Of a stretch of 64,000 bases of DNA, positions 6,509-49,926 are shown one piece after another. Within the stretch, counting starts at the first letter, position 1, and every line of letters begins with the position of its first letter. A program made the translations under genes and the position numbers. Under the pieces are notes generated by a model, which made no database searches, was not told the origin of the DNA, and was given only the letters and a program-made list of their open reading frames with translations. The stretch lies in the NCBI RefSeq assembly GCF_044324785.1, contig NZ_CP172127.1; one strand, 5' to 3'. Source of the stretch: Escherichia coli. Its GTDB lineage: Bacteria > Pseudomonadota > Gammaproteobacteria > Enterobacterales > Enterobacteriaceae.

Positions 6509-8254
6509 TCACTTTTTCGCCAGCTCCTGGTTTAATGTCCAGAGCTCCAGGCGTTCTTCGTTGCTTAAACCATGCGTGCGCTCACGAGCGATTAACTCTT
6601 CCTGGCGCAGTTCAAGCAGCGAATCAAACATATGGTTGAGTGAGTCGGTGAAGGTTTGCTCAGCAATATTCTTATCTGCTATATCGTCCCACATCGACAG
6701 TTTTTCAAGGGTGGCAGCATTATTTGTACCACGATAGTGCTCTAAAAGTTGCCCGGTGGTCAGACCTGGCTGGGAGAGACAAGTGTTGACCAGTTCTCTG
6801 AATAAGCCAAGTCCAGGGAGCTTATTTTCATCCAGATTCTCAAGCGGCGGGACCAACGTCGCTAATTCTGGATTTTGCACCAGCAACCCTATAAGTATAC
6901 GCATGGTCGTGCGTTTTAGCTGCGGAACAGGGCGAGAAACGCCGCTCTCTGCCGCTTTTGGGATTAATCGTTCAAGCTGGCTGTCATCAAGTATGCCTAA
7001 TTTGTTGCCTAATTCCTGACGAAGATATATTCGCAGCGTTTCGCCCGGCACTTGCGATATCAATGGCAGTGCCAGCGTACTCAAACGTGCCCGCCCGTCA
7101 GGGGTACTCAGATCAACTTGCGGCATCAGGCTGTTAAACAGAAATGCGGAGAGCGGCATCGCCTGCTCCATCCGCGCTTCAAACGCTTCTTTACCTTCTT
7201 TTCGTACCAGCGTGTCAGGGTCTTCGCCATCAGGCAAAAACATAAAGCGTAGCTGACGACCGTCTGTCATGTAAGGCAGCGCCGTTTCCAGCGCTCGCCA
7301 TGCGGCATCGCGGCCTGCACGGTCGCCGTCATAACAGCAAATGACATTGTTGGTCGCGCGGAACAACAGTTGTATGTGGTCGGCGGTGGTTGACGTACCT
7401 AACGACGCAACGGCGTAATTAATACCGTATTGCGCCAGCGCCACCACGTCCATATAGCCTTCGACCACAAGCAGACGATTGGGTTCAGCGTTATCCTGCT
7501 GCGCTTCATAAAGACCGTAAAGCTGGCGGCCTTTATGGAAAATGTCCGTTTCCGGCGAGTTCAGGTATTTGGGGGTATCGTTGCCCAGCACGCGTCCGCC
7601 AAAACCAATCACCCGACCGCGTTTATCGCGAATGGGGAACATCACCCGCTCGCGGAAACGATCGTAACTGCGTCCCTGATCGTTAGTGACCAACATGCCC
7701 GCATCAATCAATGACTGGCGATTTTCTGGATTGCCGCCAAACCGCTTCAGGACGTTGTCCCAGCCAGGGGGGGCAAAACCAATCGCAAAGCGGGCGATAA
7801 CCTCGTGGCTTAATCCGCGTTTTTCCAGATACTGGCGCGCAGACGTGGCAACAGGTTGCTGTAAAGATTGTTGGTAAAACGTATTCAGACCGTCCATCAA
7901 CTGATAAAGCGTTTGTCGTTGATGGCGCTCGATCTGGCTGGGGCCGCTACCTGCTTCAAATGGCACTTCAAGATTGTGCATTGCTGCCAGCTCTTCGACC
8001 GTTTCGACGAACTCAAGCTTGTCGTAGTTCATCAGGAAGTCGATCGCGTTGCCGTGCGCGCCACATCCAAAGCAGTGGTAAAACTGTTTCTCACCGTTAA
8101 CGGTGAATGATGGGGTTTTCTCGTTGTGGAATGGACAACACGCGTGGAAATTCTTGCCCTGCTTTTTCAGCTTCACACGGGCATCGATCAGATCGACGAT
8201 GTCAGTGCGTGCCAGCAGATCATTAATGAATACGCGTGGGATTCGTCCAGCCAT
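6509..8254 (-). CDS. dnaG: DNA primase
   Basis: 581 aa; zinc-ribbon CHC2 motif (CPFHNEKTPSF...HCFGCG), TOPRIM domain; in the rpsU-dnaG-rpoD operon. Confidence 0.98.
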   Translation of the reverse strand: MAGRIPRVFINDLLARTDIVDLIDARVKLKKQGKNFHACCPFHNEKTPSFTVNGEKQFYHCFGCGAHGNAIDFLMNYDKLEFVETVEELAAMHNLEVPFEAGSGPSQIERHQRQTLYQLMDGLNTFYQQSLQQPVATSARQYLEKRGLSHEVIARFAIGFAPPGWDNVLKRFGGNPENRQSLIDAGMLVTNDQGRSYDRFRERVMFPIRDKRGRVIGFGGRVLGNDTPKYLNSPETDIFHKGRQLYGLYEAQQDNAEPNRLLVVEGYMDVVALAQYGINYAVASLGTSTTADHIQLLFRATNNVICCYDGDRAGRDAAWRALETALPYMTDGRQLRFMFLPDGEDPDTLVRKEGKEAFEARMEQAMPLSAFLFNSLMPQVDLSTPDGRARLSTLALPLISQVPGETLRIYLRQELGNKLGILDDSQLERLIPKAAESGVSRPVPQLKRTTMRILIGLLVQNPELATLVPPLENLDENKLPGLGLFRELVNTCLSQPGLTTGQLLEHYRGTNNAATLEKLSMWDDIADKNIAEQTFTDSLNHMFDSLLELRQEELIARERTHGLSNEERLELWTLNQELAKK

Positions 8255-8364
8255 AGGCCCCGATTTTTAGCAATTCATAAACGAAAATAAGCCGCGCATT
8301 CCTTTCGGAAGCACGGCCTTACAACTACAACTCGGTCTGATCGGAGAGCAACGCTCTCGGGGAA

Positions 8365-8619
<255 letters not shown>

Positions 8620-8817
8620 TCAACGCCAGCTTATTTCAAAATGGTGCGGAATTTTACTGCAATTGCTGCTGCTTTGTAAAGCACCGCGGCCTTTTTTGAA
8701 AGGGACTTTTATAAGGGTGAGAAGTATACACGAGGCTTTCTCCAGGGGCGAACAAAGTTTTACATCAACCCGCATTGGTCCTACACTGCGCGGTAATAAA
8801 GCGAGGTAAAACAAGTC

Positions 8818-9831
8818 ATGCGTGTACTGGGTATTGAAACTTCCTGCGATGAAACCGGCATCGCCATTTACGACGATGAAAAAGGTTTGTTAGCCAACCA
8901 ATTGTATAGTCAGGTGAAATTGCACGCTGACTACGGCGGCGTAGTGCCTGAGCTGGCCTCCCGCGATCATGTGCGTAAAACCGTACCGTTGATCCAGGCG
9001 GCGCTAAAGGAGTCTGGTTTAACGGCAAAAGACATTGATGCTGTGGCCTATACCGCAGGCCCTGGATTAGTCGGCGCACTGCTGGTTGGCGCGACCGTGG
9101 GGCGTTCTCTGGCGTTTGCCTGGAACGTTCCGGCGATCCCTGTACACCATATGGAAGGGCATCTGTTAGCGCCGATGCTGGAAGATAACCCACCGGAATT
9201 TCCGTTTGTGGCGCTGCTGGTTTCCGGCGGTCATACGCAGTTAATCAGCGTGACTGGCATTGGTCAGTACGAGCTGCTCGGCGAGTCTATCGATGATGCG
9301 GCTGGTGAAGCGTTTGATAAAACCGCGAAGCTGCTGGGGCTGGATTATCCTGGCGGGCCATTACTGTCGAAAATGGCGGCTCAGGGTACAGCCGGGCGCT
9401 TTGTCTTCCCGCGCCCGATGACCGACCGTCCGGGGCTGGATTTCAGCTTCTCCGGCCTGAAAACCTTCGCGGCAAATACCATTCGTGACAACGGCACCGA
9501 CGACCAGACGCGTGCTGATATCGCCCGCGCCTTTGAAGATGCGGTGGTCGATACGCTGATGATTAAGTGCAAGCGGGCGCTGGATCAGACGGGCTTTAAG
9601 CGACTGGTCATGGCGGGCGGCGTGAGTGCTAACCGTACGTTACGGGCGAAGCTGGCTGAAATGATGAAAAAACGCCGCGGCGAAGTGTTCTACGCGCGTC
9701 CGGAATTTTGTACTGATAACGGCGCGATGATCGCCTATGCCGGAATGGTGCGGTTTAAAGCAGGCGCGACGGCGGATCTCGGCGTTAGCGTGCGTCCGCG
9801 CTGGCCGCTGGCGGAGTTACCGGCTGCGTAA
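8818..9831 (+). CDS. tsaD: tRNA N6-threonylcarbamoyladenosine synthase TsaD (Kae1/YgjD)
   Basis: 337 aa; [14 protein letters not shown]... ; divergent from rpsU. Confidence 0.96.
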
Positions 9832-9840
9832 AACTATCGA

Positions 9841-9864
9841 GTGCCGGAGAGTTACTTCCGGCAC
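9841..9864. terminator. Bidirectional hairpin between convergent tsaD and ttdT
   Basis: gtgccggagagttacttccggcac perfect stem. Confidence 0.5.
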
Positions 9865-9873
9865 CGTCCTTAC

Positions 9874-11337
9874 TTAAAGCAACACCACGGGCATCCACAG
9901 TAAGCCGGTAATCACCAGCAATACGAGGAATATCAGCCCAAAAATCGCCCCCAGTCGCCAGTAATCCGCCGTTGGCAGATAACCACTGCCGTAGTAAATC
10001 GGACTGGGGCCGGTGGCGTATGGTGTAAGAATGCTCCCCAGACCAATTGCCGCACCAACCATCAGGCAGAACACCGGCAGCGGGATTTCCGGCATCGCCA
10101 GCGCAGCGGCAATCATCATCGGTGCGAGGGCGGAGGTATACGCCGTGGCGCTGGCAAAGAAGTAGCGCAGCAGATAAAAGACCACAATCAACGCCACCAT
10201 CACCATCGTCGGCGAATAACCGCTTAAGCTGCCTGCTAACAGTTTGCCAAACCAGCTAATAAAACCGGTGTTGTTGAGTCCGGTAGCGAGGGTGATAAGC
10301 GAGGCCAGCCAGAAGAAAACGTTCCACGCGGCTTTATTACTGACAATGTCGTCCCAACTGATAATGCGCAGAAGCAGCATCAGCGCCACCACGCTGTAAC
10401 CGACCATCGCGGCATCGATATAATCACCGCCGAAAATCCACAGCACCAGCGCGCCTACCATCAGCCCAAGCATCCGTTTTTCACGAGAACAGAGCGGGCC
10501 CATTGCCTGCAGTTCCGTCTCTGCCCAGCGCGGCACCTGATCACCAGACTTCAGTACCGGCGGGTACAGCACGTAAGCCAGCCAGGGAACCAGCAGAACC
10601 AGTAAAATACTGAGCGGCAACATCCCGAGGAACCAGTCGCCCCAACTCAGTGTGGCGTGAGATGCGCTTTTCATCAGGCCAATTAACAGCAAGTTAGGTG
10701 CCATCGCCGTCAGGAAAATGGCGCTGGTCACGCAGTCGGCAACAATCCCCATCCACATGATGTACGAGCCAATGCTGCGTGAACTGCTGTCGTTTGGTTG
10801 TGATTGATAGAGCGGTGGCAGGTTACGGATGATGGGATAGATAATCCCCGCACCGCGCGCCGAGTTGGACGGTGTTACAGGTGCCAGGATCAGCTCGGAG
10901 AACATCACCGCATAGCCGAGAAACAGCGTACGATGCCCCATCTTTTTCACCAGAATCAGCGCGATACGTCGCCCCAGCCCGGTTTTTTCATAGCCTGTGC
11001 CAAACATAAAGGCGGCGAAAATCAGCCAGATAACCGAATTAGAAAAACCAGAAACCGCCCAGGAGAGGGATTTGGCGGTGAACTTAAAACCTGGCTGGGC
11101 GAGCTGCTCCGGGCTAAACAGCAGCCACGGCGAGAGAATGGCGATAATGGAGATACCCACCATCGCCACCACGGCACCCGGCACGGGTTCGAGGATCAGT
11201 CCAACGATCACGCCAGTAAAAACGGCAAAGTAGAGCCAGGTATGACTCTCCAGCCCTGCGGGAACCGGAATTAGAGCAATAATGGCGATGACCGCCAGCG
11301 GCGCAAGGTATCGCCACCATTCAGTGGAAGGTTTCAT
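9874..11337 (-). CDS. ttdT: L-tartrate/succinate antiporter (DASS family anion permease)
   Basis: 487 aa polytopic membrane protein; immediately downstream of ttdAB. Confidence 0.9.
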   Translation of the reverse strand: MKPSTEWWRYLAPLAVIAIIALIPVPAGLESHTWLYFAVFTGVIVGLILEPVPGAVVAMVGISIIAILSPWLLFSPEQLAQPGFKFTAKSLSWAVSGFSNSVIWLIFAAFMFGTGYEKTGLGRRIALILVKKMGHRTLFLGYAVMFSELILAPVTPSNSARGAGIIYPIIRNLPPLYQSQPNDSSSRSIGSYIMWMGIVADCVTSAIFLTAMAPNLLLIGLMKSASHATLSWGDWFLGMLPLSILLVLLVPWLAYVLYPPVLKSGDQVPRWAETELQAMGPLCSREKRMLGLMVGALVLWIFGGDYIDAAMVGYSVVALMLLLRIISWDDIVSNKAAWNVFFWLASLITLATGLNNTGFISWFGKLLAGSLSGYSPTMVMVALIVVFYLLRYFFASATAYTSALAPMMIAAALAMPEIPLPVFCLMVGAAIGLGSILTPYATGPSPIYYGSGYLPTADYWRLGAIFGLIFLVLLVITGLLWMPVVLL

Positions 11338-24548: not shown

Positions 24549-26248
24549 CAGCCCCTTGCTGACTTCCCGATTGTTGATGAACGCCGGACCCCGCGCAATG
24601 CTTTCCCAGAGGCAGTTTTGCCTTCCCCGAGCGGTCACGCAAAATGCTGCAACAGCCCGATCATTTGCACTTTTTATCGGAACGCAGATATAAAGAATCC
24701 CCGGCTTTTTGGGCCAGGGATGTTCATAGTTGAAAATTTATTCTACGTTTTCTGCGACGGGAGTTGTTGAGGTTAAGGGGGAAGTCAATGCCGCCAGCGA
24801 GCCGCCTGAAACGCCAATTTCATTGAGTAAGGAGTCAATCAGCGGTGCTTGTGTGCGGTAAGAGAGTGCGGCTGATAACGCTTGTTCCGCCAGGTTTCCG
24901 CCCCCCACATTACCCGTGTTTGCATCACCCGCAGCGCTGCCACGATTCAGACCATCGACCTGAATAATCTTGATACCGTCAATAGATTTCATCGGCTCAA
25001 CGGATTTTTCTATTACCGCAGGTAGCGCCTGCAACAAGGCCAGTTTGAATTTAAGGCTGGTTTGTTCATCAGAAAGTACGTTGATAGCATCGTTCAGCGC
25101 ACGTTGTGCTTCTGCTTCCGCCAGACCCTTTTTACGTGTAGCTTCGGCTAACTCAACGATAGCCGCCGCCTGCATCTCTGCGGCTTCTTTTTCTGCTTTT
25201 GCCCGGACAGTCAGTTCAACTGCTTTGGTTTCTGCATCCTGCGCGGCAGCGATTAGGGCAACTTGTTTAGCACGATCGGCTTCTGCGGTCTGGCGAGTGG
25301 TTTCTACGTTTTGTTGGGCGCTTACTGCTTCTGCGAGTGCAAGGTTAGCACGCGCTTCTGCCTGGGACTGTTGTTCCGATTTGGCGGCAATAGCGATCGA
25401 TTTCGTCTGGTTGGCGATTTCGGTGACCTGCTGCTGTTCGATCTCTTTAATGCGAACTTCACGTTCAGCTTCAACTTTTCTGGAACGGACGGCCTGTTCG
25501 CGGTCGATTTCCGTTTCCTGAATCTGTCGTTCAGCCAGAATTCGCGTCTGCTCTGCTTCCCGACGACGCTCGGCCTCAAAAGCTGCAATTTTCGCATTCT
25601 GCTCAGCGGTACGGGTTTTAACCTGCTGCTCCTGTTCAAGCGTCATAAACGCTTCTTGTTGTTCAATCTCCAGCTTCCGCGAAAGCGCATCACGATTTTT
25701 CTCACGCACCGCAACTTCTACATCCTGTTCAACTTCGTTACGTTCGCGACGACGGCGCTCCGTCTCCTGCGTCAGCTTGGTTAAACCTTCGGCGTCAAAG
25801 GCGTTGTTAGGATTGAAATGTTCTTTCGACGTCTGGTTAAAGTTGGTAAGTGAAACGCTTTCCAGTTCCAGACCGTTTTTCGACAGATCTTCAGCTACGG
25901 TATTTTGTACTCCCTGCACGAAGTTCTCGCGGGTATCCTGTAACTCATGCATGGTCATTTGTGCAGCTGTTGCACGGAGGGCATCGACGAATTTATCTTC
26001 AACCAACATACGTAAATCTTCTGGTGATAGCGTGCGTTGCCCCAACGTTTGGGCAGCGGTGGCAATCCCTTCTACTGAAGGTTTTACCCGCACAAAGAAA
26101 GCGACTACTACATCGACGCGCATACGATCTTTCGTAATCAGGCTATCAATGGTTGAGCGGCTGACTTCCAGCTTCAGAGTATTCATATTGATGGGGATTA
26201 TTTCATGAAAGATCGGCATCACGATTGCGCCACCGCTCATTACCACTT

Positions 26249-40323: not shown

Positions 40324-42465
40324 TCAAAATTCCATTTTCACCGTGAATTGCACTGCACGCGGATCGCCAATCTGATTCCCCAGATTATTTGTGGCGATGG
40401 AAGAGGTGTAATACGTTTTATCAAACAGGTTTTTGACGTTTAATTGCAGTGTGACCGGATACTGCAATTTCATTTTGTATGCGGCGAAGGCATCGGCAAC
40501 GAAATAGCCAGGCAGATAATAGTCAGCCCCATTGGTTGCCGAACGACGGCTTACGCCATGTCCACCACCGCCAAACGTCAGTGTGTTATTGCCTGGCATG
40601 TTATGAATGTCATAGGTCAGGAATAGCGAACCGGTATGACGAGGAACATTCGGCAATGGTTTCCCTGCATAATCAGGATCTTCCAGAACCTTAGCATCGG
40701 TATAGCCGTAGCTGGCAATGATATTAATGTTTTCAGTTAATGCTCCCGCAAGGTCGACTTCTACCCCTCTTGAACGAACGCGGCCTGCCGTTTTGGCGAT
40801 GGTTTCATCACCAATACTTTCGGTATACAACACGTTACGTTTATGGATATCAAACAGCGCAATATCTGCGGTTATACCATCGAACAGCTCGAATTTTGCC
40901 CCGACTTCGTAAGCATTAGATGATTCCGGTGGAAGATCTCCGATGTAGCTGGCAATTGACGATTGCGGCATAAATGTTTGCGAATAATTAGCAAATAAGG
41001 ATACCGATGGCGTCAGTTTGTAGACTAACCCCAGTTTGGGCGTCCATTGTTCATCGCGGCTGTCAGTATTGACATTAAAAGGACGGCCTTTACCCGCATA
41101 CTGCGTGTAATACTGATAGCGGATCCCGGCGACGGCAATCCAGTTATCGGTCAGATAGAGCGCGTCCTGTGCATACGCTGAGTAGCTCTCCTGTTTGATC
41201 GTCTGATCACTGTCCGACGCCGAAACCGTTGTGCATTTGCTGGTAATACCATAAACGGGGTTGTAGATATTGAAATCTTTAGCTTTTTTACAGCGAATCA
41301 TATCTGTGCGCAGAAGATCATAATATTCATATGACACCCCACCCAGAATCTCATTATAGAATCCGGCAATATCAACATTCCCTTGCAGATCCGCACGAGT
41401 AGCATGCATACGCTGGGTAGATCCTTGGGTTGCATCAACACGCCGTGTCAGCGTTCCTGTCGTTGCATCATATGCGGTAACACGCGCCTGATTATCGCTG
41501 TATTTATCCTGGCTGTAGCTGTAATCAAAGCGCGCTGTCCACTGGCTATTGAGATGATATTCTGCGTTGAGTTGCGCCAGATCGGACTGACCATCTGTAA
41601 TATTAAACGGTTCGTCAAAACGTATTTTTCGATCAACGTTTACGGGCTGTTTCGTCGTAAGGTCGAAAATCGTTCCACGATCGAACGGAGTTTTATAGTC
41701 CCGATGGGAATAGAGCATGGTTACTGTTGCATTATCACCAAACCAGGTGAGTGACGGGGCAATAAATGTACTGCGCTCTTTACCGAAGTTTCGCCAGTAA
41801 TCTTCATCCTGCACTTCCCCGGTAAGGCGATACGCCAGCTGAGTGCCTTCAATGGGACCTGTGATATCAAGTTGCCCAGTGCCGCCACCAAAACTGGAGG
41901 AGGTGGCTGAAACCGAACCATGGAATGTTTTTTCCGGGCGCTTGGTCACGACGTTAATCAGTCCACCAGGATCGAGAATGCCATACAGCGTGGAGGCCGG
42001 ACCTTTTAGCACTTCCACACGTTCTGTGGCGGCGTTGAAACTGCGAGGAAGTACAGTTCGCAGGCCGTTGGTCATGATGGAGCCATCCCGGTTAGCACCA
42101 AACCCACGACGTACAAAGGCGTCCTGAGTTCCGCCTAATGTATTGGTCTGTACCACGTTACTGACGTTATAAAGCGCTTCATCCAGCGTCGTCGCATTCT
42201 GATTTTCCAGAACCTGATCGCTAACCGTATTGACCACCTGCGGGATATCCAGCATCGGCATATCGGTTAATGTCGCCGTGGAAGTGCTCAGAGGTTGATA
42301 ACCATCGGTCGCCTCAGTTGCGGTATTTGCATCCGCTGTAACAGTGATTGTTTCGCCATCTTTGGTCGTTGCAGTGTCGGTTGCATGAATCATTGGTGCT
42401 GCAAAGAGCAGTGAAAAGAGCGCCCGACCTTTGATTCCTGAGAATGAAGGTGTGAACTTAGCCAT
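40324..42465 (-). CDS. TonB-dependent outer-membrane siderophore receptor
   Basis: 713 aa; signal peptide, plug domain, beta-barrel, C-terminal aromatic residue (...FTVKMEF). Confidence 0.88.
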   Translation of the reverse strand: MAKFTPSFSGIKGRALFSLLFAAPMIHATDTATTKDGETITVTADANTATEATDGYQPLSTSTATLTDMPMLDIPQVVNTVSDQVLENQNATTLDEALYNVSNVVQTNTLGGTQDAFVRRGFGANRDGSIMTNGLRTVLPRSFNAATERVEVLKGPASTLYGILDPGGLINVVTKRPEKTFHGSVSATSSSFGGGTGQLDITGPIEGTQLAYRLTGEVQDEDYWRNFGKERSTFIAPSLTWFGDNATVTMLYSHRDYKTPFDRGTIFDLTTKQPVNVDRKIRFDEPFNITDGQSDLAQLNAEYHLNSQWTARFDYSYSQDKYSDNQARVTAYDATTGTLTRRVDATQGSTQRMHATRADLQGNVDIAGFYNEILGGVSYEYYDLLRTDMIRCKKAKDFNIYNPVYGITSKCTTVSASDSDQTIKQESYSAYAQDALYLTDNWIAVAGIRYQYYTQYAGKGRPFNVNTDSRDEQWTPKLGLVYKLTPSVSLFANYSQTFMPQSSIASYIGDLPPESSNAYEVGAKFELFDGITADIALFDIHKRNVLYTESIGDETIAKTAGRVRSRGVEVDLAGALTENINIIASYGYTDAKVLEDPDYAGKPLPNVPRHTGSLFLTYDIHNMPGNNTLTFGGGGHGVSRRSATNGADYYLPGYFVADAFAAYKMKLQYPVTLQLNVKNLFDKTYYTSSIATNNLGNQIGDPRAVQFTVKMEF

Positions 42466-42563
42466 TTAGTCTGTTATCCCAAAAACTCACGGATTGTCGT
42501 GAGTGAAAATTGTTTCTTGTTGCTCACTAAGCACTATCCGTTTGTTATCTCACCATCGGATAT

Positions 42564-42584
42564 GTAATTGAGAATCATTCAATC
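42564..42584. promoter_or_regulatory. Fur-box-like site in the divergent promoter region between the receptor and the ABC operon
   Basis: gtaattgagaatcattcaatc compared with consensus GATAATGATAATCATTATC; embedded in an AT-rich 370-bp intergenic region. Confidence 0.5.
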
Positions 42585-42838
42585 ATGCGGTGATGTAGTA
42601 GTAAATGAGAAATAACAAAAAATTGCTACATGTGTTTTTATGAGAGGTTAATGCAATTCAATTGATTGTAATTTATTAATATTTAATGGTTTTATTTTTA
42701 TCTTTAAAAATATTTCACCTGTTATTTACCTTGTTTTTGTATGGCTTTTAACTTCTTGACTACTACATTTTGTGGCGTCAAACTCTCAAAGGAGAATGAG
42801 TTTTATTTTTGTTTGTCTTTGATTAAGTTGGCGTACAC

Positions 42839-43648
42839 GTGGCACATAACGCAAAAGGGCAGGGGCTGATCCTCGACAATGTTTCTGCCGGGTATCACAC
42901 GAAAATCATTGTTGATGGTGTTTCTTTCTCCGTTCCCACAGAAAAAATGACCGTTCTGGTTGGGGCAAACGGCTGTGGAAAGTCGACGTTGCTCAGCACC
43001 ATTGCACGTATCTTGCAACCTATGGGCGGCTCGATATTGCTGGATGGTAAAGCGATTCACGAGCAACCAACGAAAGCGTTATCCCGTAGACTTGGGATCT
43101 TGCCGCAGTCGCCATTATTGCCGGAGGGATTAACCGTTTATGAACTGGTGTCGCGTGGGCGTTTTCCCTGGCAGAATTTCATTCGTCAATGGAGCGACGC
43201 CGACGAGCAGGCGGTAGAAGAGGCCCTGAAATTAACCGGTACGCAGGAGTTTGCACATTTACCTGTTGAAAAACTTTCTGGTGGGCAGCGCCAGCGTTGC
43301 TGGATTGCGATGGTGTTGGCGCAAAAGACGCCTTATATCCTGCTGGATGAACCCACAACCTGGCTTGATTTACGTTATCAGGTTGAAATTCTTGAGTTAT
43401 TACATGATTTAACGCGTCATCACGGGCGTACAGTCGTCGTGGTGTTGCATGATCTGAATTTTGCCGTCAATTATGGTGATACGTTGATATTTTTACGCCA
43501 GGGGAAAGTGGTGCGTGTGTTGAATGAGGGGGAACATTGCACGCCTGAGCTGGTAAAAGCTGTCTTTGACGTTGATGTTCACGCATCAATAAATCCTCTG
43601 ACGGGAAAGCCGTTCTTCATGCCGTTTCGTGGTGTAGAAAAAGTATGA
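42839..43648 (+). CDS. ABC transporter ATP-binding protein, FepC/FecE-like
   Basis: 269 aa; Walker A GANGCGKST, signature LSGGQRQR, Walker B ILLDEPT; GTG start at 42839 is the most upstream in-frame start. Confidence 0.88.
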   Translation: MAHNAKGQGLILDNVSAGYHTKIIVDGVSFSVPTEKMTVLVGANGCGKSTLLSTIARILQPMGGSILLDGKAIHEQPTKALSRRLGILPQSPLLPEGLTVYELVSRGRFPWQNFIRQWSDADEQAVEEALKLTGTQEFAHLPVEKLSGGQRQRCWIAMVLAQKTPYILLDEPTTWLDLRYQVEILELLHDLTRHHGRTVVVVLHDLNFAVNYGDTLIFLRQGKVVRVLNEGEHCTPELVKAVFDVDVHASINPLTGKPFFMPFRGVEKV

Positions 43649-44628
43649 TGCGCACAGGGCTGGTTACTGTAATTTTCCTCGCCTTACTGCTGGTGGGATG
43701 CGTGGTATATCCAGGGATTGGTGCCCGATTTATTGCACCACAAACGGTGTTGCAGGCATTTCTTCATTTTGATCCGCAAAACTTCGATCACAACGTAATT
43801 GTAAGACTCCGTTTGCCGCGTTTAGCGGCAGCATTGCTTACCGGTGCTTCTCTTGGAGTTGCTGGTGCTTTGTTGCAGGCTGTCATTCGTAACCCATTGG
43901 GGGAGCCACATATTTTAGGCTTAAATGCCGGAGCCGCTCTTGCTGTCGTTGCTGCCAGTGCGCTTGGGCTGGCCTTTCCGGTTGGACGCCCACTGCTGGC
44001 ATCTACGGGCGGCGCGTTATTGTTCCTGTTGATATTGCTGCTTTCCTCCGCAGGGCGTTCAGGGTTAACGCCAATGAAAGTTACTTTATGCGGCGTGGCG
44101 CTATCGGCGTTCGTGTCCTCAATAACGGCTGCAATCCTGATTCTTGACGAACAAACACTGCTGGCGATGCGGACATGGCTAGCAGGTGATTTAGCGGGGC
44201 AGGATTGGGCGACGCTGGGTACGTCCGCCTGGTTTTCTCTGGGGGGGGTTGTGTTAGCCATTTACCTTGCGCCCTCTCTTAACATGTTGGCACTGGGTGA
44301 TCGCATGGCGCAGGGGCTGGGCGTCTCGGTACTCCGCACGCGAACATTCACTCTGCTTGCGATCGCGTTGCTCTGTGGCGCAGCCGTATCGATTGCTGGC
44401 CCCATTGGTTTTGTCGGTCTGCTAGTACCGCAGATTGTCAGGCGTCTGGTATCTGCGGATCTGCGCGTTCTGCTCCCTCTTTCAGCTTGTGTCGGTGCCT
44501 TACTGCTATTACTGGCAGATATTATTGCCCGGACGCTTTTCACGCCCCATGAGCTGGCGACCGGTGTCATGACGGCGTTAGTTGGTGCGCCCGTTTTTGT
44601 CATTATGGCGACGAGGATGTTCAAATGA
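43645..44628 (+). CDS. ABC transporter permease (FecCD family)
   Basis: 327 aa polytopic membrane protein; start overlaps the upstream stop. Confidence 0.85.
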   Translation: MMRTGLVTVIFLALLLVGCVVYPGIGARFIAPQTVLQAFLHFDPQNFDHNVIVRLRLPRLAAALLTGASLGVAGALLQAVIRNPLGEPHILGLNAGAALAVVAASALGLAFPVGRPLLASTGGALLFLLILLLSSAGRSGLTPMKVTLCGVALSAFVSSITAAILILDEQTLLAMRTWLAGDLAGQDWATLGTSAWFSLGGVVLAIYLAPSLNMLALGDRMAQGLGVSVLRTRTFTLLAIALLCGAAVSIAGPIGFVGLLVPQIVRRLVSADLRVLLPLSACVGALLLLLADIIARTLFTPHELATGVMTALVGAPVFVIMATRMFK

Positions 44629-45674
44629 GTCGGATAATGAACGTCGGGCTACGTCCACTACGTGTTGGTAAGTTTTCGACACTGGTACGCCCTAAAAATC
44701 TGGTGTTGCTTGGTGGGCTGTTTCTGTTTGCGGTTGGAATACTGATATTCGGTCTGATGCATGGTTCTTTTTCTGTCCCGGCATCGGAAGTAGGACGAGC
44801 GTTGTTTGCTCCAGAAAACGTAAGCACAGACGCACGTTATATTGTGCAGGATATTCGCTTGCCGAGAGTCATCATGGCATTGCTATGCGGAGCCATGTTA
44901 GGTATGGCGGGGGCCGCGATGCAATCCATTGCGCGTAACGGCCTTGCCGATCCTGGTTTAATCGGCGTCAAAGAAGGATGTAGCGTGGCGGTGCTGTGGC
45001 TGATTTTCCAGTTTCCAATGCTGGGAATGTTCTGGCGTCCAGTGGCTGGTCTTGCTGGTGGCTTGTTGGTGGCTTTAATCGTGATTTTTTGTGCGCGCGA
45101 TATTTCCCGCCCGCGATTTGTTCTGATTGGTATTGGTGTTTCCTGGTTTTTCGCCGCCGGTATCGGTGTATTTATGACCACTGCAGATGTTCGAGATGTA
45201 CAAACTGCATTGATGTGGTTATCGGGAAGCCTGCATGCAGCTAACTGGATGTTAGTCGGTATTTCAGCCTGTTGGATGTTGCCAGCCGCTCTTTTATTGC
45301 TGTTCACCGCCAGGACGGCGGATATCGCTCTGCTTGGTCATCAGGTGGCAACCGGGTTAGGCGTGAATAGTTCTCGCCTGGCGTTGTTACGTGTCGCCGC
45401 ACCCATAATCCTGACAGCCGTCTGCGTTTCGTGTGTTGGTAACATCGGTTTTGTCGGATTGATAGCACCCCATATATCACGTTTTATTCTACGTGGCGGG
45501 CAGACGACATTACTGCTGGGGAGCGCGGTATCGGGGGCGTTGTTAGTCATCCTGGCGGATAGCATTGGTCGTTTGGCTTTTTTGCCTTTGCAACTGCCTG
45601 CCGGAATCATTATTTCATTGATTGGTGGACCATTCTTTTTGCTACTGCTCTGGCAGCGCAGGAACAGTTTTTAA
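44625..45674 (+). CDS. ABC transporter permease (FecCD family), second subunit
   Basis: 349 aa polytopic membrane protein; start overlaps the upstream stop. Confidence 0.85.
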   Translation: MSRIMNVGLRPLRVGKFSTLVRPKNLVLLGGLFLFAVGILIFGLMHGSFSVPASEVGRALFAPENVSTDARYIVQDIRLPRVIMALLCGAMLGMAGAAMQSIARNGLADPGLIGVKEGCSVAVLWLIFQFPMLGMFWRPVAGLAGGLLVALIVIFCARDISRPRFVLIGIGVSWFFAAGIGVFMTTADVRDVQTALMWLSGSLHAANWMLVGISACWMLPAALLLLFTARTADIALLGHQVATGLGVNSSRLALLRVAAPIILTAVCVSCVGNIGFVGLIAPHISRFILRGGQTTLLLGSAVSGALLVILADSIGRLAFLPLQLPAGIIISLIGGPFFLLLLWQRRNSF

Positions 45675-45684
45675 TGGGAGTTAT

Positions 45685-46632
45685 ATGCGTTTATTTTTTT
45701 CTCTGCTGATACTGTTGTCATTCTTTGCCCGCGCGACAGAACCTGTTCAGGTCTTTACTGATGATTTAGGGCGCAAAGTCACTGTTCCTGCTCATCCAAA
45801 GAGAATTGTCTCTTTACACGATCTTGATATCACTATTCCTCTGATTGAGCTCGGTGTACCTCCTGTCGCCAGCCACGGGCGAACCCGGCCTGACGGTAGC
45901 CATTTCATTCGATCAGGCGCGTTATTGACAGGTGTCGACTTTGATAATTCATCGATCGCTTTTATTGGCACCGCTGATATTGATATTGAAGCGATTGTGG
46001 CGGCAAAGCCTGACCTGATCATCACAGAACCGACCCGTAATACGCCCATTGAACAACTGGAAAAAATTGCGCCCACGGTGAGCATTGATCATCTCAAAGG
46101 CGGCGCGCCAGAAATCTACCGCAAGCTGGCAGAACTTACAGGAACGCAGTCGCAGCTGGCGATACTTGAACGCCGCTATCAGGCACAAATCAATGCGCTG
46201 AAGGCGACGCTGGACAGCCAAAAAATAACGGTATCGGTGATTCAGGCAAATCAGGGAAAAATTAATGTGATGCATAGCTATCATTCGCTGGGGCGGGTAT
46301 TACGCGATGCTGGTTTTCGCTTTCCGCCGCTGATTGAGAGCATTCCTGAAGGTGGGCGAATGGATGTGAGCGCAGAGCGTTTACCTGAACTGGATGCCGA
46401 TTTTGTTTTTGCAACCTGGCGCGGTGACACCGGTGGTAAACCTCAGGATGAGCTGGCAGCAATGGAAAAAGTCATGCCGGGATGGTGTCAGTTTCTGACG
46501 GCCTGTCGTTCCGGGCGCTATGTGCTGATTTCTCGTGAAGAGGCGATTTCTAACTCCTTTGCATCTCTGGGGCTGATGGCTGCGCAGATACAATCACAAA
46601 TTGCGGGACGACCTCTACCGGAGGCTAAATGA
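45685..46632 (+). CDS. Periplasmic substrate-binding protein (siderophore/chelate-binding cluster)
   Basis: 315 aa from ATG 45685 (MRLFFSLLILLSFFARA signal peptide) preceded by aatgggag RBS; track ORF extends upstream. Confidence 0.8.
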   Translation: MRLFFSLLILLSFFARATEPVQVFTDDLGRKVTVPAHPKRIVSLHDLDITIPLIELGVPPVASHGRTRPDGSHFIRSGALLTGVDFDNSSIAFIGTADIDIEAIVAAKPDLIITEPTRNTPIEQLEKIAPTVSIDHLKGGAPEIYRKLAELTGTQSQLAILERRYQAQINALKATLDSQKITVSVIQANQGKINVMHSYHSLGRVLRDAGFRFPPLIESIPEGGRMDVSAERLPELDADFVFATWRGDTGGKPQDELAAMEKVMPGWCQFLTACRSGRYVLISREEAISNSFASLGLMAAQIQSQIAGRPLPEAK

Positions 46633-47516
46633 TCCAGAAAGACAAAACGCGGGTTGATATTTATGGTGAGCGTTTTCGCACTCGCGCGAGTCAGTTAACG
46701 CCTGGGTTAAGAACTGTCGCAAGCTACATTAATGAGCATCGTGAAGTGGTACTCGAGCAAACGGCGATGGAAATTGCGGCCACGTTGAACACTTCCGATG
46801 CCACAGTTATCAGGGCTATACAGGCTCTGGGGTTTGCCGGGCTGCGTGATCTGAAACGCACTCTGGAACAGTGGCTTGGTCCAGCCCTTAGTTCCAGCGA
46901 AAAGATGTCTACGACGGTGAGTAACTTGACGAGCGATGTTAACACCGCAATCGACTTTGTTCTTGAAGGGCATTTGTATACTTGTAATGTCCTGTCAGAG
47001 CCTGAAAACCGCCACGCGCTTGCGCAAGCTGTAGCGTTGTTGGTGCAGGCACGGCAAGTCGCTATTTTTGGCATTGGCGCTTCGGGTATCCTGGCGGACT
47101 ATACCGCACGACTATTCAACCGCATAGGTTTGCCTGCCACGGCACTAAACCGTACGGGTATTGGCCTTGCCGAGCAACTGATCGCGCTTCAACGTGGCGA
47201 TGTTCTGATCATGATGGCGCAAAAATCTGCGCACCGGGAAGGGCTGACAACGCTTCGTGAGGCGAGGCGGCTGGGGATCCCTGTTATTTTGCTGACAAAC
47301 GCGCTGGATTCACGTTTTAGCAAAGACGCCAGTATCGTGATTCATGTTCCGCGCGGGGATGAAAAGGGGAAAACGCCACTACATGGTACGGTATTGTTGT
47401 GCCTGGAAATGATTGTTTGGTCGGTGGCTTCCGCGATGCCGCAGCGTGCGGTTAAAACCATTAAGCGAATTAACGATTTCCATCGGGGTTTGAAAACGGG
47501 AAGAAAGAATGGCTAA
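46629..47516 (+). CDS. RpiR/MurR-family transcriptional regulator (N-terminal HTH, C-terminal SIS domain)
   Basis: 295 aa; SIS-type nucleotide/sugar-phosphate-binding fold recognisable (…VAIFGIGASG…); start overlaps the SBP stop. Confidence 0.8.
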   Translation: MIQKDKTRVDIYGERFRTRASQLTPGLRTVASYINEHREVVLEQTAMEIAATLNTSDATVIRAIQALGFAGLRDLKRTLEQWLGPALSSSEKMSTTVSNLTSDVNTAIDFVLEGHLYTCNVLSEPENRHALAQAVALLVQARQVAIFGIGASGILADYTARLFNRIGLPATALNRTGIGLAEQLIALQRGDVLIMMAQKSAHREGLTTLREARRLGIPVILLTNALDSRFSKDASIVIHVPRGDEKGKTPLHGTVLLCLEMIVWSVASAMPQRAVKTIKRINDFHRGLKTGRKNG

Positions 47517-47524
47517 TCTGACCT

Positions 47525-47553
47525 GAGGCCGGTAGCAACACCGGCCTCTTTTC
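47525..47553. terminator. Hairpin plus T-tract between the regulator and ygiN
   Basis: gaggccggtagcaacaccggcctc followed by TTTTC. Confidence 0.65.
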
Positions 47554-48736: not shown

Positions 48737-49216
48737 ATGTCAAATATCATATACTTATCAATTAAAGGAAAAACACAAGGTTTGATCTCTGAGGGCTGTG
48801 GTTCGTATGCATCTATTGGTAATAAATATCAAATAAATCATGTGGATGAAATTTTTGTTTTACAGTTCGACCATTCTTTAAGTCGAGAATATAATGTAGT
48901 GCATCATCCCATAAAATTTTACAAGCCAATAGATAAATCCTCTCCTTTATTAAATGCTGCTCTTTCTGAAAATGAAGAGTTATCAGCTGTATTTAATTTT
49001 TATAGAATTAATTCTGGCGGTTGTATTGAAAGGTTTTACACAATTGAATTGCAAGGGGCATATTTATCGAATATTCTGACTTGTTATCCACACTCAATTA
49101 CACATGCGGGTAATCAACCGGAAGAGGTCATTGTTCTTAATTATAAAAATATAACATGGAAGCACCATATCGCGAGTACGGAATCATATAGCTGTTGGGA
49201 AGAAAGGATTTTTTAA
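48737..49216 (+). CDS. hcp: Hcp-family protein (type VI secretion tube protein), orphan copy
   Basis: 159 aa; conserved Hcp blocks: N-terminal Y-x-I-K-G...QGLI-x-GC, FVLQFDH, HHPIKFYKPIDKSSPLLNAAL, VIVLNYKNITWKH; RBS ggag 7 nt upstream; AT-rich context. Confidence 0.85.
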   Translation: MSNIIYLSIKGKTQGLISEGCGSYASIGNKYQINHVDEIFVLQFDHSLSREYNVVHHPIKFYKPIDKSSPLLNAALSENEELSAVFNFYRINSGGCIERFYTIELQGAYLSNILTCYPHSITHAGNQPEEVIVLNYKNITWKHHIASTESYSCWEERIF

Positions 49217-49218
49217 AT

Positions 49219-49926
49219 ATGAAAAGCGATCTCACTATAAAAAATAGATATTGTACAATTCCACAAACGAAGTTCCGTAAATGGGATGAAATGGACGTTT
49301 TACTCTGGAAGTTAGGAAAAAATGATTCGCGTCGCCGTTCAGGAGTATATTATTTAAATGCTTATAAAGATGCATATGTACAATATAATAGGGACAAAAT
49401 AATTAAACATGCATATGCCGCAGGGATTCGTCCAGAGTTATTGGGCGGCGTGGCCTGGATTGAGTCAGGAGGTATGCCTGAAAATTATAAGTTTCAGATA
49501 TATGAAACAAAAAGAATGATCGGATCGTTAGATATGCCTGAAAATAAAACATCATTTGGCTCAATGGGTATACAAATACGAACCGCAGCGATTACTCTAG
49601 GCCTTGACCCTTCAGAATTAACTACCAGAAATCAGTTAGAGTTAGCGACATGCCTGATGGAAGATGATTTTACCTTTAAAATTGCTGCTACTCATTTAAG
49701 AGATCTTGCCCTTTTTGATTATCCCTCTTCGGCAACACTGTATATGACGAATGAGCAGTATATTATGGCTGGTATTAGATATAATCGTGGTGTTGAACGA
49801 GATTTGGGTTTTTTTATTTATTTAATTAATAATTTGCCTGCGCGTGATACAGATGATTATAAATTCATCTCTTATGGTATGAGGTTGTTAGAGATTAGAG
49901 AACATATCAAAAAATTGATTAATTAG
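49219..49926 (+). CDS. Hypothetical protein with lytic-transglycosylase/lysozyme-like motifs; candidate Hcp-associated effector
   Basis: 235 aa from ATG 49219 (RBS ggaagaaagga); motifs WIESGG, SMGIQI and AGIRYNRG with spacing like the ES / GLMQ / AYNxG motifs of family-1 lytic transglycosylases; start 3 nt after the hcp stop. Confidence 0.6.
   Translation: MKSDLTIKNRYCTIPQTKFRKWDEMDVLLWKLGKNDSRRRSGVYYLNAYKDAYVQYNRDKIIKHAYAAGIRPELLGGVAWIESGGMPENYKFQIYETKRMIGSLDMPENKTSFGSMGIQIRTAAITLGLDPSELTTRNQLELATCLMEDDFTFKIAATHLRDLALFDYPSSATLYMTNEQYIMAGIRYNRGVERDLGFFIYLINNLPARDTDDYKFISYGMRLLEIREHIKKLIN

Follow-up and report, generated by a model that had tools for sequence, protein, structure and literature searches.

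The question raised by this locus is what an RpiR-type regulator, in which a helix-turn-helix domain is joined to a SIS domain, is doing at the end of an apparent siderophore uptake operon, and what it might sense there. The gene is an open reading frame of 295 codons, ATG to stop, spanning exactly positions 46629-47516 on the plus strand of the window (the whole stretch of 64,000 nucleotides that was analysed). The domain assignment made in the initial annotation holds: Pfam places HTH_6 (PF01418) at residues 14-81 (E 3.6e-10) and SIS (PF01380) at residues 138-247 (E 1.3e-13), and RefSeq labels the identical gene "MurR/RpiR family transcriptional regulator". The best structural matches of the AlphaFold2 model (mean pLDDT 90) are RccR, NanR and MurR, and comparison with the SIS domains of 3SHO, MurR and NanR gives target-normalised TM-scores of about 0.8 with rmsd of 2.5-3 Å. 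The protein scores below every curated cut-off of the named NCBIfam equivalogs, including AlsR, HexR and MurR (best scores 52-80 bits, against 296-920); it is a member of the RpiR/MurR family, yet an orthologue of no named NCBIfam regulator. More than 780 homologues are found at E<=1e-10, orthologues retain the same gene context, and a chance open reading frame is ruled out.

The gene is fitR of the published E. coli fit system, fitA / fitBCDE-fitR (Ouyang & Isaacson, Infect Immun 2006; Open Microbiol J 2008, PMC2593036), with no difference at the level of the gene. Each of the 17 published fit primers finds its expected gene, with 0-3 mismatches (those for fitR lie at 46629, 46686-46703, 46732-46819 and 47496-47513), and the gene order and products, a receptor divergent from an ATPase, two permeases, a binding protein and a regulator, are those described previously (PMC2593036). 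The cluster is inserted between parE and ygiN in the E. coli chromosome. A plasmid location was considered and rejected, as the sole "plasmid" match is a 4.9-Mb record, a chromosome. fitA (40324-42465, minus strand) encodes a TonB-dependent siderophore receptor of 713 aa that scores 372.8 bits against TIGR01783 (cut-off 223.5), with the published qPCR primers at 41645-41721 matching perfectly. Divergent from it on the plus strand are fitB (42839-43648; 269 aa, GTG start), the transporter ATPase by RefSeq and its FecE/FepC-like NCBIfam matches, with qPCR primers at 42996-43082, again with no mismatches; fitC (43645-44628) and fitD (44637-45674), both FecCD-family permeases by NCBIfam and RefSeq, with published primers at 44264-44359 and 45329-45388; and fitE (45685-46632; primers at 46232-46303), a periplasmic siderophore-type substrate-binding protein of solved structure (PDB 3BE5/3BE6). 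By phmmer, FitE matches 3BE5 over residues 19-315 (E 2.2e-195), and 3BE6 is named Ec-FitE (PMC10553834). The fitR start codon overlaps the fitE stop codon (ATGA, 46629-46632), so that fitR is, as had been supposed, the last of five co-directional genes in this TonB-receptor/FecCD cluster. Between fitR and the convergent ygiN, a GC-rich terminator-like hairpin can be read at 47525-47552 on the plus strand (GAGGCCGGT-AGCAAC-ACCGGCCTC, then TTTT); the consensus terminator scan missed it because its T-run has only four T.

The 2008 study had already noted the combination of a helix-turn-helix with a sugar-isomerase domain, and established by lacZ fusions, qRT-PCR, complementation and EMSA that FitR represses the two divergent promoters, fitA and fitB, about 2-5 fold, that it thereby represses its own operon, that it binds the fitA-fitB intergenic DNA, and that its action does not depend on Fur and adds to that of Fur (PMC2593036). 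Fur represses the fit genes as well, with 23-fold induction in a fur mutant (PMC2593036), and the island is induced by iron limitation and has been described as associated with human-pathogenic isolates (PMC2593036, PMC5907654). The proposal that the regulator controls its own operon is therefore confirmed by published genetics and EMSA; FitR is added to Fur and does not replace it (PMC2593036). Since domains, repression and binding were all published in 2008, the association of an RpiR/SIS regulator with a siderophore-type operon is already known. The published work on fit defines no operator, ligand, peculiarity of the pocket or distribution outside E. coli; what is new here is the pairing of orthologues with receptors, the candidate operators and the substitutions in the pocket.

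Of 5426 complete E. coli genomes, 1870, roughly one in three, carry the fit island. We considered 80 loci encoding FitR orthologues at 66-98% identity, and in almost all of them fitR adjoins the gene for FitA or for a second type of TonB-dependent receptor, 35-39% identical to FitA, that is not accompanied by ABC transporter genes; 17 loci consist of this receptor and fitR only (type-2). In 75 related loci the sequence extends far enough upstream to judge; 70 of them have a TonB receptor, and the other five have fitBCDE or a receptor remnant. A receptor, fit-type genes or a remnant of FitE likewise lie next to homologues from Orrella, Xanthobacter and metagenomes that are only 40-51% identical; several other distant homologues are on contigs too short to reveal context. 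Across the 80 related loci, fitR has no conserved neighbour of the sugar kinase, isomerase, glycosidase or PTS kind. The genes 3' of fitR in the type-2 loci (L048) are not conserved and match no family, and they therefore say nothing about the substrate. The fit-type operons of Erwinia sp. JUb26, Pantoea coffeiphila and Orrella each include two genes for PstS-like (phosphate-binding-protein-like) proteins.

Comparison of the intergenic regions suggests where FitR may bind. The fragment shifted by FitR in EMSA (PMC2593036) maps to 42487-42845. Within it we predict one operator, O_A, at 42594-42630, an inverted TGTAG/CTACA repeat of the form TGTAGTAGTAAA-N20-CTACA, whose fitA-proximal end coincides with a -35-like TTTACT reading toward fitA. 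In 73 of 89 loci its 12-mer occurs exactly once, always at the equivalent position, where about 0.2 occurrences would be expected by chance. The CTACA partner follows 31-32 nt downstream, beyond a variable spacer, in 33 of 54 type-1 and 16 of 17 type-2 regions; it is absent from the Klebsiella oxytoca group, Raoultella, Kluyvera and some Erwinia. A second predicted operator, O_B, at 42756-42767, is TTGACTACTACA, the reverse complement of a TGTAGTAGT box, fused to the -35-like TTGACT of the fitB promoter and invariant across an alignment of 12 type-1 intergenic regions. Together with positions 42593-42605 it forms a long-range inverted repeat of 13 nt, 92% complementary, and 53 of the 54 type-1 regions contain the 9-mer ACTACTACA in both orientations. 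(A third copy of the 9-mer, at 26104, is within chance, about 0.5 being expected per window.) The boxes are invariant across genera amid otherwise divergent intergenic DNA, they precede the different type of receptor in 16 of the 17 loci having only receptor and fitR, and they accompany fitR even where the neighbouring receptor is of the other type or a mere remnant.

The identity of these boxes points in the same direction. The RpiR-family repressor RccR has TGTAGT/ACTACA as its half-site, proven on the PaceA probe (TGTAGTAGT...ACTACA) by footprinting and mutagenesis, and the boxes in the fit promoters are identical to this half-site; residue R62 of FitR, which is invariant, also aligns with RccR R53, critical for DNA binding. 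As the half-site is the same, the TGTAGTAGTAAA(-N20-CTACA) and TTGACTACTACA boxes are probable FitR operators, as judged from comparative sequence data. Because they overlap -35-like hexamers, part of their conservation could reflect contacts with sigma-70 or another protein, and the boxes might be promoter elements, or sites for some other factor, with FitR binding elsewhere in the intergenic region. The fusion of the TGTAGTAGT/ACTACTACA boxes to TTGACT and TTTACT would fit that explanation, but we consider it unlikely: the fitA-fitB region has no other conserved blocks apart from two Fur-like boxes, the boxes travel with fitR whatever the state of the receptor, and the half-site is that of RccR. 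The -35 and -10 elements were themselves assigned by hand, the consensus scan having returned no sigma-70 promoter within the fitA-fitB intergenic region.

Of the two Fur-box-like elements, the one on the fitA promoter side (42564-42582) is GTAATTGAGAATCATTCAA, with 12 of 19 consensus positions, and it is nearly invariant in 12 divergent type-1 and 11 type-2 regions. The second (42792-42810), GAGAATGAGTTTTATTTTT, lies downstream of the putative fitB -10, matches at 12-13 of 19 positions, and contains a block, GAGAATGAG.TTTATTTTT, that is conserved across genera. A count of 12 of 19 is not significant by itself, there being 115 such sites in the window, and the case for the Fur boxes is made by conservation and published genetics.

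The more difficult problem is what FitR senses. In RccR, the phosphate of the ligand is held by S139, S183, S185 and S188, which align with FitR S152, A197, K199 and H202. The first loop is kept in FitR (FGIGAS152G, of the G-x-G-x-S type), while the second reads A197-Q-K199-S-A-H202-R-E where RccR has S183-Q-S185-G-R-S188-K-D, so that the canonical S-x-S-G-x-S/T phosphate loop is absent and three of the four phosphate serines are replaced. The replacements at A197, K199 and H202 are invariant in 11 orthologues, and the wider FitR subfamily also departs from the canonical loop, with LAYGxxYxE. Q198, K199, S200, H202, R203, E204, G205, R242, H252 and other residues in the region of the pocket are invariant in orthologues at 69-89% identity. 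Judging from these substitutions, the ligand of FitR is probably no canonical phosphosugar. The initial annotation had suggested that the transported substrate, or a signal controlling it, is sugar-derived; with the three serines replaced and no sugar gene conserved in the 80 loci, that idea is left unsupported. FitR might nevertheless bind a phosphorylated ligand of some kind, since S152 and R165 (RccR R152) are retained and K199, H202 and R203 could bind phosphate; more generally, the basic K-x-x-H-R loop could bind an anionic ligand. It could also be, given the PstS-like pair that recurs in some operons, that the substrate carries a phosphate or phosphonate group. As for the substrate of the E. 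coli system, it is not enterobactin according to a secondary citation (PMC5907654), and we found nothing newer in the literature on the substrate of FitA or FitE.

A true sensor of a phosphosugar or sugar derivative, reporting a glycosylated or amino-sugar chelator or coupling iron uptake to carbon status, would be in keeping with the SIS fold and with the fact that all characterised full-length relatives bind phosphosugars (RccR binds KDPG, NanR ManNAc-6P, MurR MurNAc-6P). The retained S152 and R165, the basic loop and the PstS-like pair might be read the same way. We nonetheless regard such a sensor as improbable: apart from the replaced serines and the want of conserved sugar-metabolic neighbours, a quadruple Ser-to-Ala mutant of RccR loses its response to KDPG, and FitA clusters with hydroxamate/pyochelin-type receptors and FitE with siderophore-binding proteins. 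At the other extreme, FitR may have no small-molecule effector at all, the SIS domain serving for oligomerisation only. The protein would then be a constitutive negative autoregulator, by which expression noise or overshoot of the fit genes, themselves under Fur, is kept in check. In the published assays repression was weak and needed no added ligand, and nothing but deletion of fitR relieved it, with no inducing condition found (PMC2593036); the canonical ligand loop, moreover, is degenerate. All of this would be expected of a protein without an effector. However, the altered loop, along with R242 and H252, is invariant among the orthologues, which argues for selection on a specific site and not for decay, and conservation of the regulator with a single receptor, even where there are no ABC genes, suits a switch that responds to a signal; we therefore doubt this explanation too, if a little less than the sugar sensor.

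The reading that we favour, with somewhat better than even confidence, is that FitR is a dedicated one-component repressor of the fit island, acting from operators at the -35 elements and relieved by substrate induction, with a ligand that is probably not a phosphosugar. FitR would probably be a tetramer, by analogy with RccR and MurR, and would recognise RccR-type TGTAGT/ACTACA half-sites. The composite site would lie at and upstream of the fitA -35 and the TTGACTACTACA box on the fitB -35, so that occupancy would block RNA polymerase at both promoters, and the Fur boxes would cover the -10/+1 regions. The SIS domain would be the effector module, its phosphate-clamping serines having given way to A197, K199 and H202. 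Substrate induction seems the most likely logic, in which FitR would bind what FitA-E imports, or a product formed from it in the cytoplasm, and repression would be lifted; full expression of the transporter would then be reached only when iron is low (Fur off) and the cognate chelator is present (FitR off).

This proposal can be set beside regulators that are better understood. RccR/HexR of Pseudomonas (PDB 8JU9/8K3B), which responds to KDPG, is the best match to FitR in both structure and sequence, with the same HTH_6 and SIS domains and repressor activity; its TGTAGT/ACTACA half-sites, with variable spacers, are identical to the boxes conserved in the fit promoters. The two are nevertheless just 23-24% identical, RccR governs central carbon metabolism where FitR governs iron-chelator transport, S183, S185 and S188 of RccR are A, K and H in FitR, and the composite FitR site, with its longer spacer, would be 37 bp overall against 15 or 28 bp for RccR. 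NanR (Vibrio vulnificus, S. pneumoniae) and MurR (E. coli) have in common with FitR the fold and the logic proposed here: they are encoded with uptake or catabolic genes, and their inducer is a phosphorylated catabolite that arises in the cytoplasm from the imported substrate. Their ligands, however, are phosphosugars held in the canonical S-x-S-G-x-S/T loop (VSSSGSTKE in 4IVN, against MAQKSAHRE in FitR), and nothing connects them with TonB or iron.

Siderophore-responsive regulators of receptor genes, layered on Fur, are otherwise of the AraC type (PchR, YbtA, AlcR) or sigma/anti-sigma systems of the FecIR type. Their role would be that of FitR, in that the receptor is made only when the cognate chelator is present, but they belong to unrelated protein families and are activators, whereas FitR represses. 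FecIR-type control also needs a signalling domain on the receptor. The nearest structures to FitA are FoxA, FetA and FhuA; FitA residues 33-710 align with FoxA residues 87-774, so the signalling domain of FoxA has no counterpart in FitA, which lacks any STN extension, and no sigma/anti-sigma gene was found in the island in the open reading frame list or RefSeq. As FitA has no signalling domain of the FecA/FoxA type, surface signalling would not be available to this system.

We suggest, more tentatively and at well under even confidence, that FitR and its relatives are a distinct branch of the RpiR family in which the pocket has been re-tooled (K199/H202/R203, R242, H252) for a ligand other than a phosphosugar, namely the chelator imported by a FitA-type receptor or its cytoplasmic breakdown product. 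The comparative results make the question of the ligand testable, as they provide a candidate operator, a set of pocket residues and a conserved core of regulator and receptor, and the fit chelator could be sought with a PfitB reporter in a fitR+ background as the biosensor. If the suggestion is correct, FitR would represent a new class of one-component repressors that respond to a chelator and go together with TonB-dependent receptors, a class spanning the Enterobacterales and reaching the Burkholderiales and Rhizobiales.

The window is a segment of the E. coli chromosome running tolC-nudF-cpdA-yqiA-parE ... ygiN-mdaB-qseCB, with 7.2 kb of inserted DNA separating parE from ygiN. This insert, the fit system already described in E. 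coli, encodes the FitA receptor, FitB ATPase, FitC and FitD permeases, FitE binding protein and FitR regulator (Ouyang & Isaacson 2008, PMC2593036). The gene order agrees with that description: the TonB-dependent siderophore receptor gene fitA (40324-42465, minus strand) is divergent from a co-directional set comprising the ATPase gene fitB (42839-43648), the FecCD permease genes fitC (43645-44628) and fitD (44637-45674), the binding protein gene fitE (45685-46632) and, last, a 295-aa ORF occupying exactly 46629-47516 on the plus strand. The start ATG of this ORF shares ATGA with the preceding stop codon, and a GC-rich hairpin followed by TTTT (47525-47552) lies 3' of it, ahead of the convergent ygiN. 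Each of the 17 primers of PMC2593036 matches where expected, at 0-3 mismatches; among them are those used to clone fitR, at 46629 and 47496-47513, and those for the EMSA 'fit promoter' fragment, at 42487-42845. PDB 3BE5/3BE6, called Ec-FitE in PMC10553834, is identical to FitE over residues 19-315 (E 2e-195). It is close to certain that the ORF is fitR. The fit island is chromosomal and is found in 1870 of 5426 complete E. coli genomes (at least 80% coverage).

The initial annotation placed an HTH plus SIS regulator at the end of a TonB/FecCD operon, and gene order, the ORF itself, Pfam (HTH_6, residues 14-81, E 3.6e-10; SIS, residues 138-247, E 1.3e-13) and a fold search all bear this out. 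The AlphaFold2 model (mean pLDDT 90) best matches RccR (8K3B/8JU9), NanR (4IVN, 9DQN) and MurR, with the SIS domain superposing at 2.5-3 A, while FitR scores far below every named NCBIfam equivalog cut-off. Such a regulator in the fit operon is real but already known, FitR having been described in 2006/2008. Its effect on the operon, by which the observation might have been refuted, is likewise already in print in PMC2593036: excess FitR lowers the activity of fitA- and fitB-lacZ fusions about 3-fold, knocking out fitR raises it 2-5 fold, complementation brings repression back, and His-tagged FitR specifically shifts the intergenic fragment. In the published pBAD-fitR1, the ORF is cloned from codon 20 onward (primer core 46686; site 46686-46703), yet fit is still repressed; the published size is 28 kDa versus about 32 kDa predicted from 295 aa, and the model is of low confidence over residues 1-10 (pLDDT block 58). 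FitR may thus do without its first 19 residues, or the real start may lie further downstream.

In alignments of the intergenic region, which is otherwise divergent, only two Fur-box-like elements (42564-42582 and 42792-42810) and the boxes TGTAGTAGTAAA (42594-42605) and TTGACTACTACA (42756-42767) are invariant, the latter containing TGTAGTAGT in reverse complement, joined to a -35-like hexamer. Of 89 loci, 73 carry the 12-mer TGTAGTAGTAAA exactly once, always at a constant relative position and in one orientation (about 0.2 expected by chance). CTACA follows exactly 31-32 nt past its start in 33 of 54 regions between fitA and fitBCDE-fitR and in 16 of 17 regions between fitR and a second receptor type (TBDR2), thus forming an inverted repeat TGTAG-N27-CTACA; the 20-nt spacer ahead of CTACA varies freely. 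The boxes travel with fitR under either adjacent receptor type, with Fur-like and TGTAGTAGTAAA-N20-CTACA boxes present at the TBDR2 promoter as well. The half-site is that of RccR, the closest solved relative of FitR, for which TGTAGT/ACTACA is experimentally proven at 15-bp and 28-bp spacings (PaceA probe TGTAGTAGTCTTGAAAAAACACTACA) and half-site mutation abolishes binding (PMC5489143, PMC11014249). FitR R62, invariant throughout the subfamily, aligns with R53, a residue on which RccR depends for DNA binding. Given this conservation, the pairing with fitR, the shared half-site and the R53/R62 match, the boxes are quite probably FitR operators. These predicted operators overlap both -35 regions, which would account for the repression of both promoters, and FitR, if tetrameric like RccR and MurR, could span the roughly 165 bp from one site to the other. 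A reading in which FitR does not bind the conserved boxes seems improbable; it bears on the operator question only and is compatible with either of the alternatives for the FitR signal considered below. Outside the island, the 9-mer ACTACTACA turns up a third time, at 26104-26112, which is within what chance would give (about 0.5 per window).

FitR orthologues (66-98% identity) were found at 80 loci, all in Enterobacterales, by scanning one genome per species and assigning architectures by tblastn with six Fit proteins and further queries. The full fitA/fitBCDE-fitR arrangement is present at 52 (Escherichia, Enterobacter, Kosakonia, Citrobacter, the Klebsiella oxytoca group, Raoultella, Kluyvera and some Erwinia). 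At 17 loci (Serratia, Pantoea, Rahnella, Erwinia, Enterobacter cancerogenus and one Tatumella sp., locus L065), TBDR2 lies divergent and immediately upstream of fitR without ABC genes. Shimwellia has TBDR2 with fitBCDE-fitR, four loci (three Tatumella and Pantoea sp. A4) have fitBCDE-fitR without a receptor, Erwinia typographi has only a receptor remnant, and five truncated loci are uninformative on architecture. TBDR2 is a different receptor, 35-39% identical to FitA and 68-100% among its copies. It lies, for example, at 7445-9574 of locus L048 and at 16 others (L050, L058, L075 and L077 among them); the pair without an adjacent importer also occurs on Pantoea ananatis plasmid pPANA1. Among distant homologues, that of Orrella dioscoreae (45% identity) ends a single-strand series of TBDR, ATPase, two FecCD permeases, binding protein and two PstS-like proteins, a receptor fragment accompanies two further homologues, divergent from the 42% one and downstream of the 40% one, and that of Xanthobacter autotrophicus (51%) has what is left of a FitE C-terminus ahead of it. 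Because orthologous loci and distant homologues keep this association, the conserved core is the regulator plus a TonB-dependent receptor. The Xanthobacter remnant is a 49-aa ORF directly upstream (locus L082, 7727-7876; 40% over 32 aa) with RND efflux genes as neighbours, and the locus looks like a decayed fit-type operon that kept its regulator.

Erwinia sp. JUb26 and Pantoea coffeiphila carry three additional genes between fitE and fitR, one encoding a PepSY_TM protein (FoxB-like ferric-siderophore reductase) and two encoding paralogous PstS-like (PBP_like_2) periplasmic proteins; the PstS-like pair recurs in the Orrella operon at 34-46% identity (extra or PstS-like genes at 6926-9992 in loci L038 and L040 and 6010-7946 in L083). 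Near the E. coli island, an AT-rich insert (about 38% GC) between mdaB and ygiZ (48737-49926), absent from strain AST215, holds an orphan gene for a type VI secretion tube protein (Hcp/TssD, 159 aa; TIGR03344, E 4.5e-59) and next to it an overlapping 243-aa ORF that had no match in an NCBIfam search and may encode an effector or immunity protein linked to Hcp.

The initial annotation also took an RpiR/SIS regulator in a siderophore-type operon as a hint of a sugar-derived substrate or signal. RccR grips the phosphate of KDPG through S139, S183, S185 and S188, and changing all four to alanine abolishes its response. The phmmer alignment places FitR S152, A197, K199 and H202 at these positions, so that whereas the second phosphate-binding loop reads ISQSGRSKD in RccR and VSSSGSTKE in NanR (4IVN), it reads MAQKSAHRE in FitR and LAYGxxYxE in the wider subfamily (26-51% identity). 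All 11 orthologues compared (69-89% identity) keep FitR Q198, K199, S200, H202, R203, E204 and G205 unchanged. From these sequences, the pocket is a site under selection and not a canonical phosphosugar site, which leaves the sugar proposal unsupported and a true phosphosugar or sugar-derived signal doubtful, despite the family to which FitR belongs. A phosphate-bearing ligand is nevertheless possible because the PstS-like pair recurs in the Erwinia sp. JUb26, Pantoea coffeiphila and Orrella operons and the FitR loop is basic. FitR might instead be a ligand-free autoregulatory damper, repressing its own operon as published; set beside the invariant pocket, this is unlikely, if somewhat less so than a sugar signal.

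Unlike FoxA/FecA-type transducers, FitA has no N-terminal signalling domain, making a cytoplasmic sensor the only dedicated regulatory route. In 2018 the Fit substrate was stated to be unknown and not enterobactin (PMC5907654), and literature searches found no later identification. Induction of the operon by its substrate, acting as a non-phosphosugar ligand, is a tentative proposal on its own; taken as a whole, the account combining fitR identity, the predicted operator and substrate induction is the best explanation and probably correct. FitR and Fur would then constitute an AND gate, with the operon fully on only when iron is low and the cognate chelator is present.
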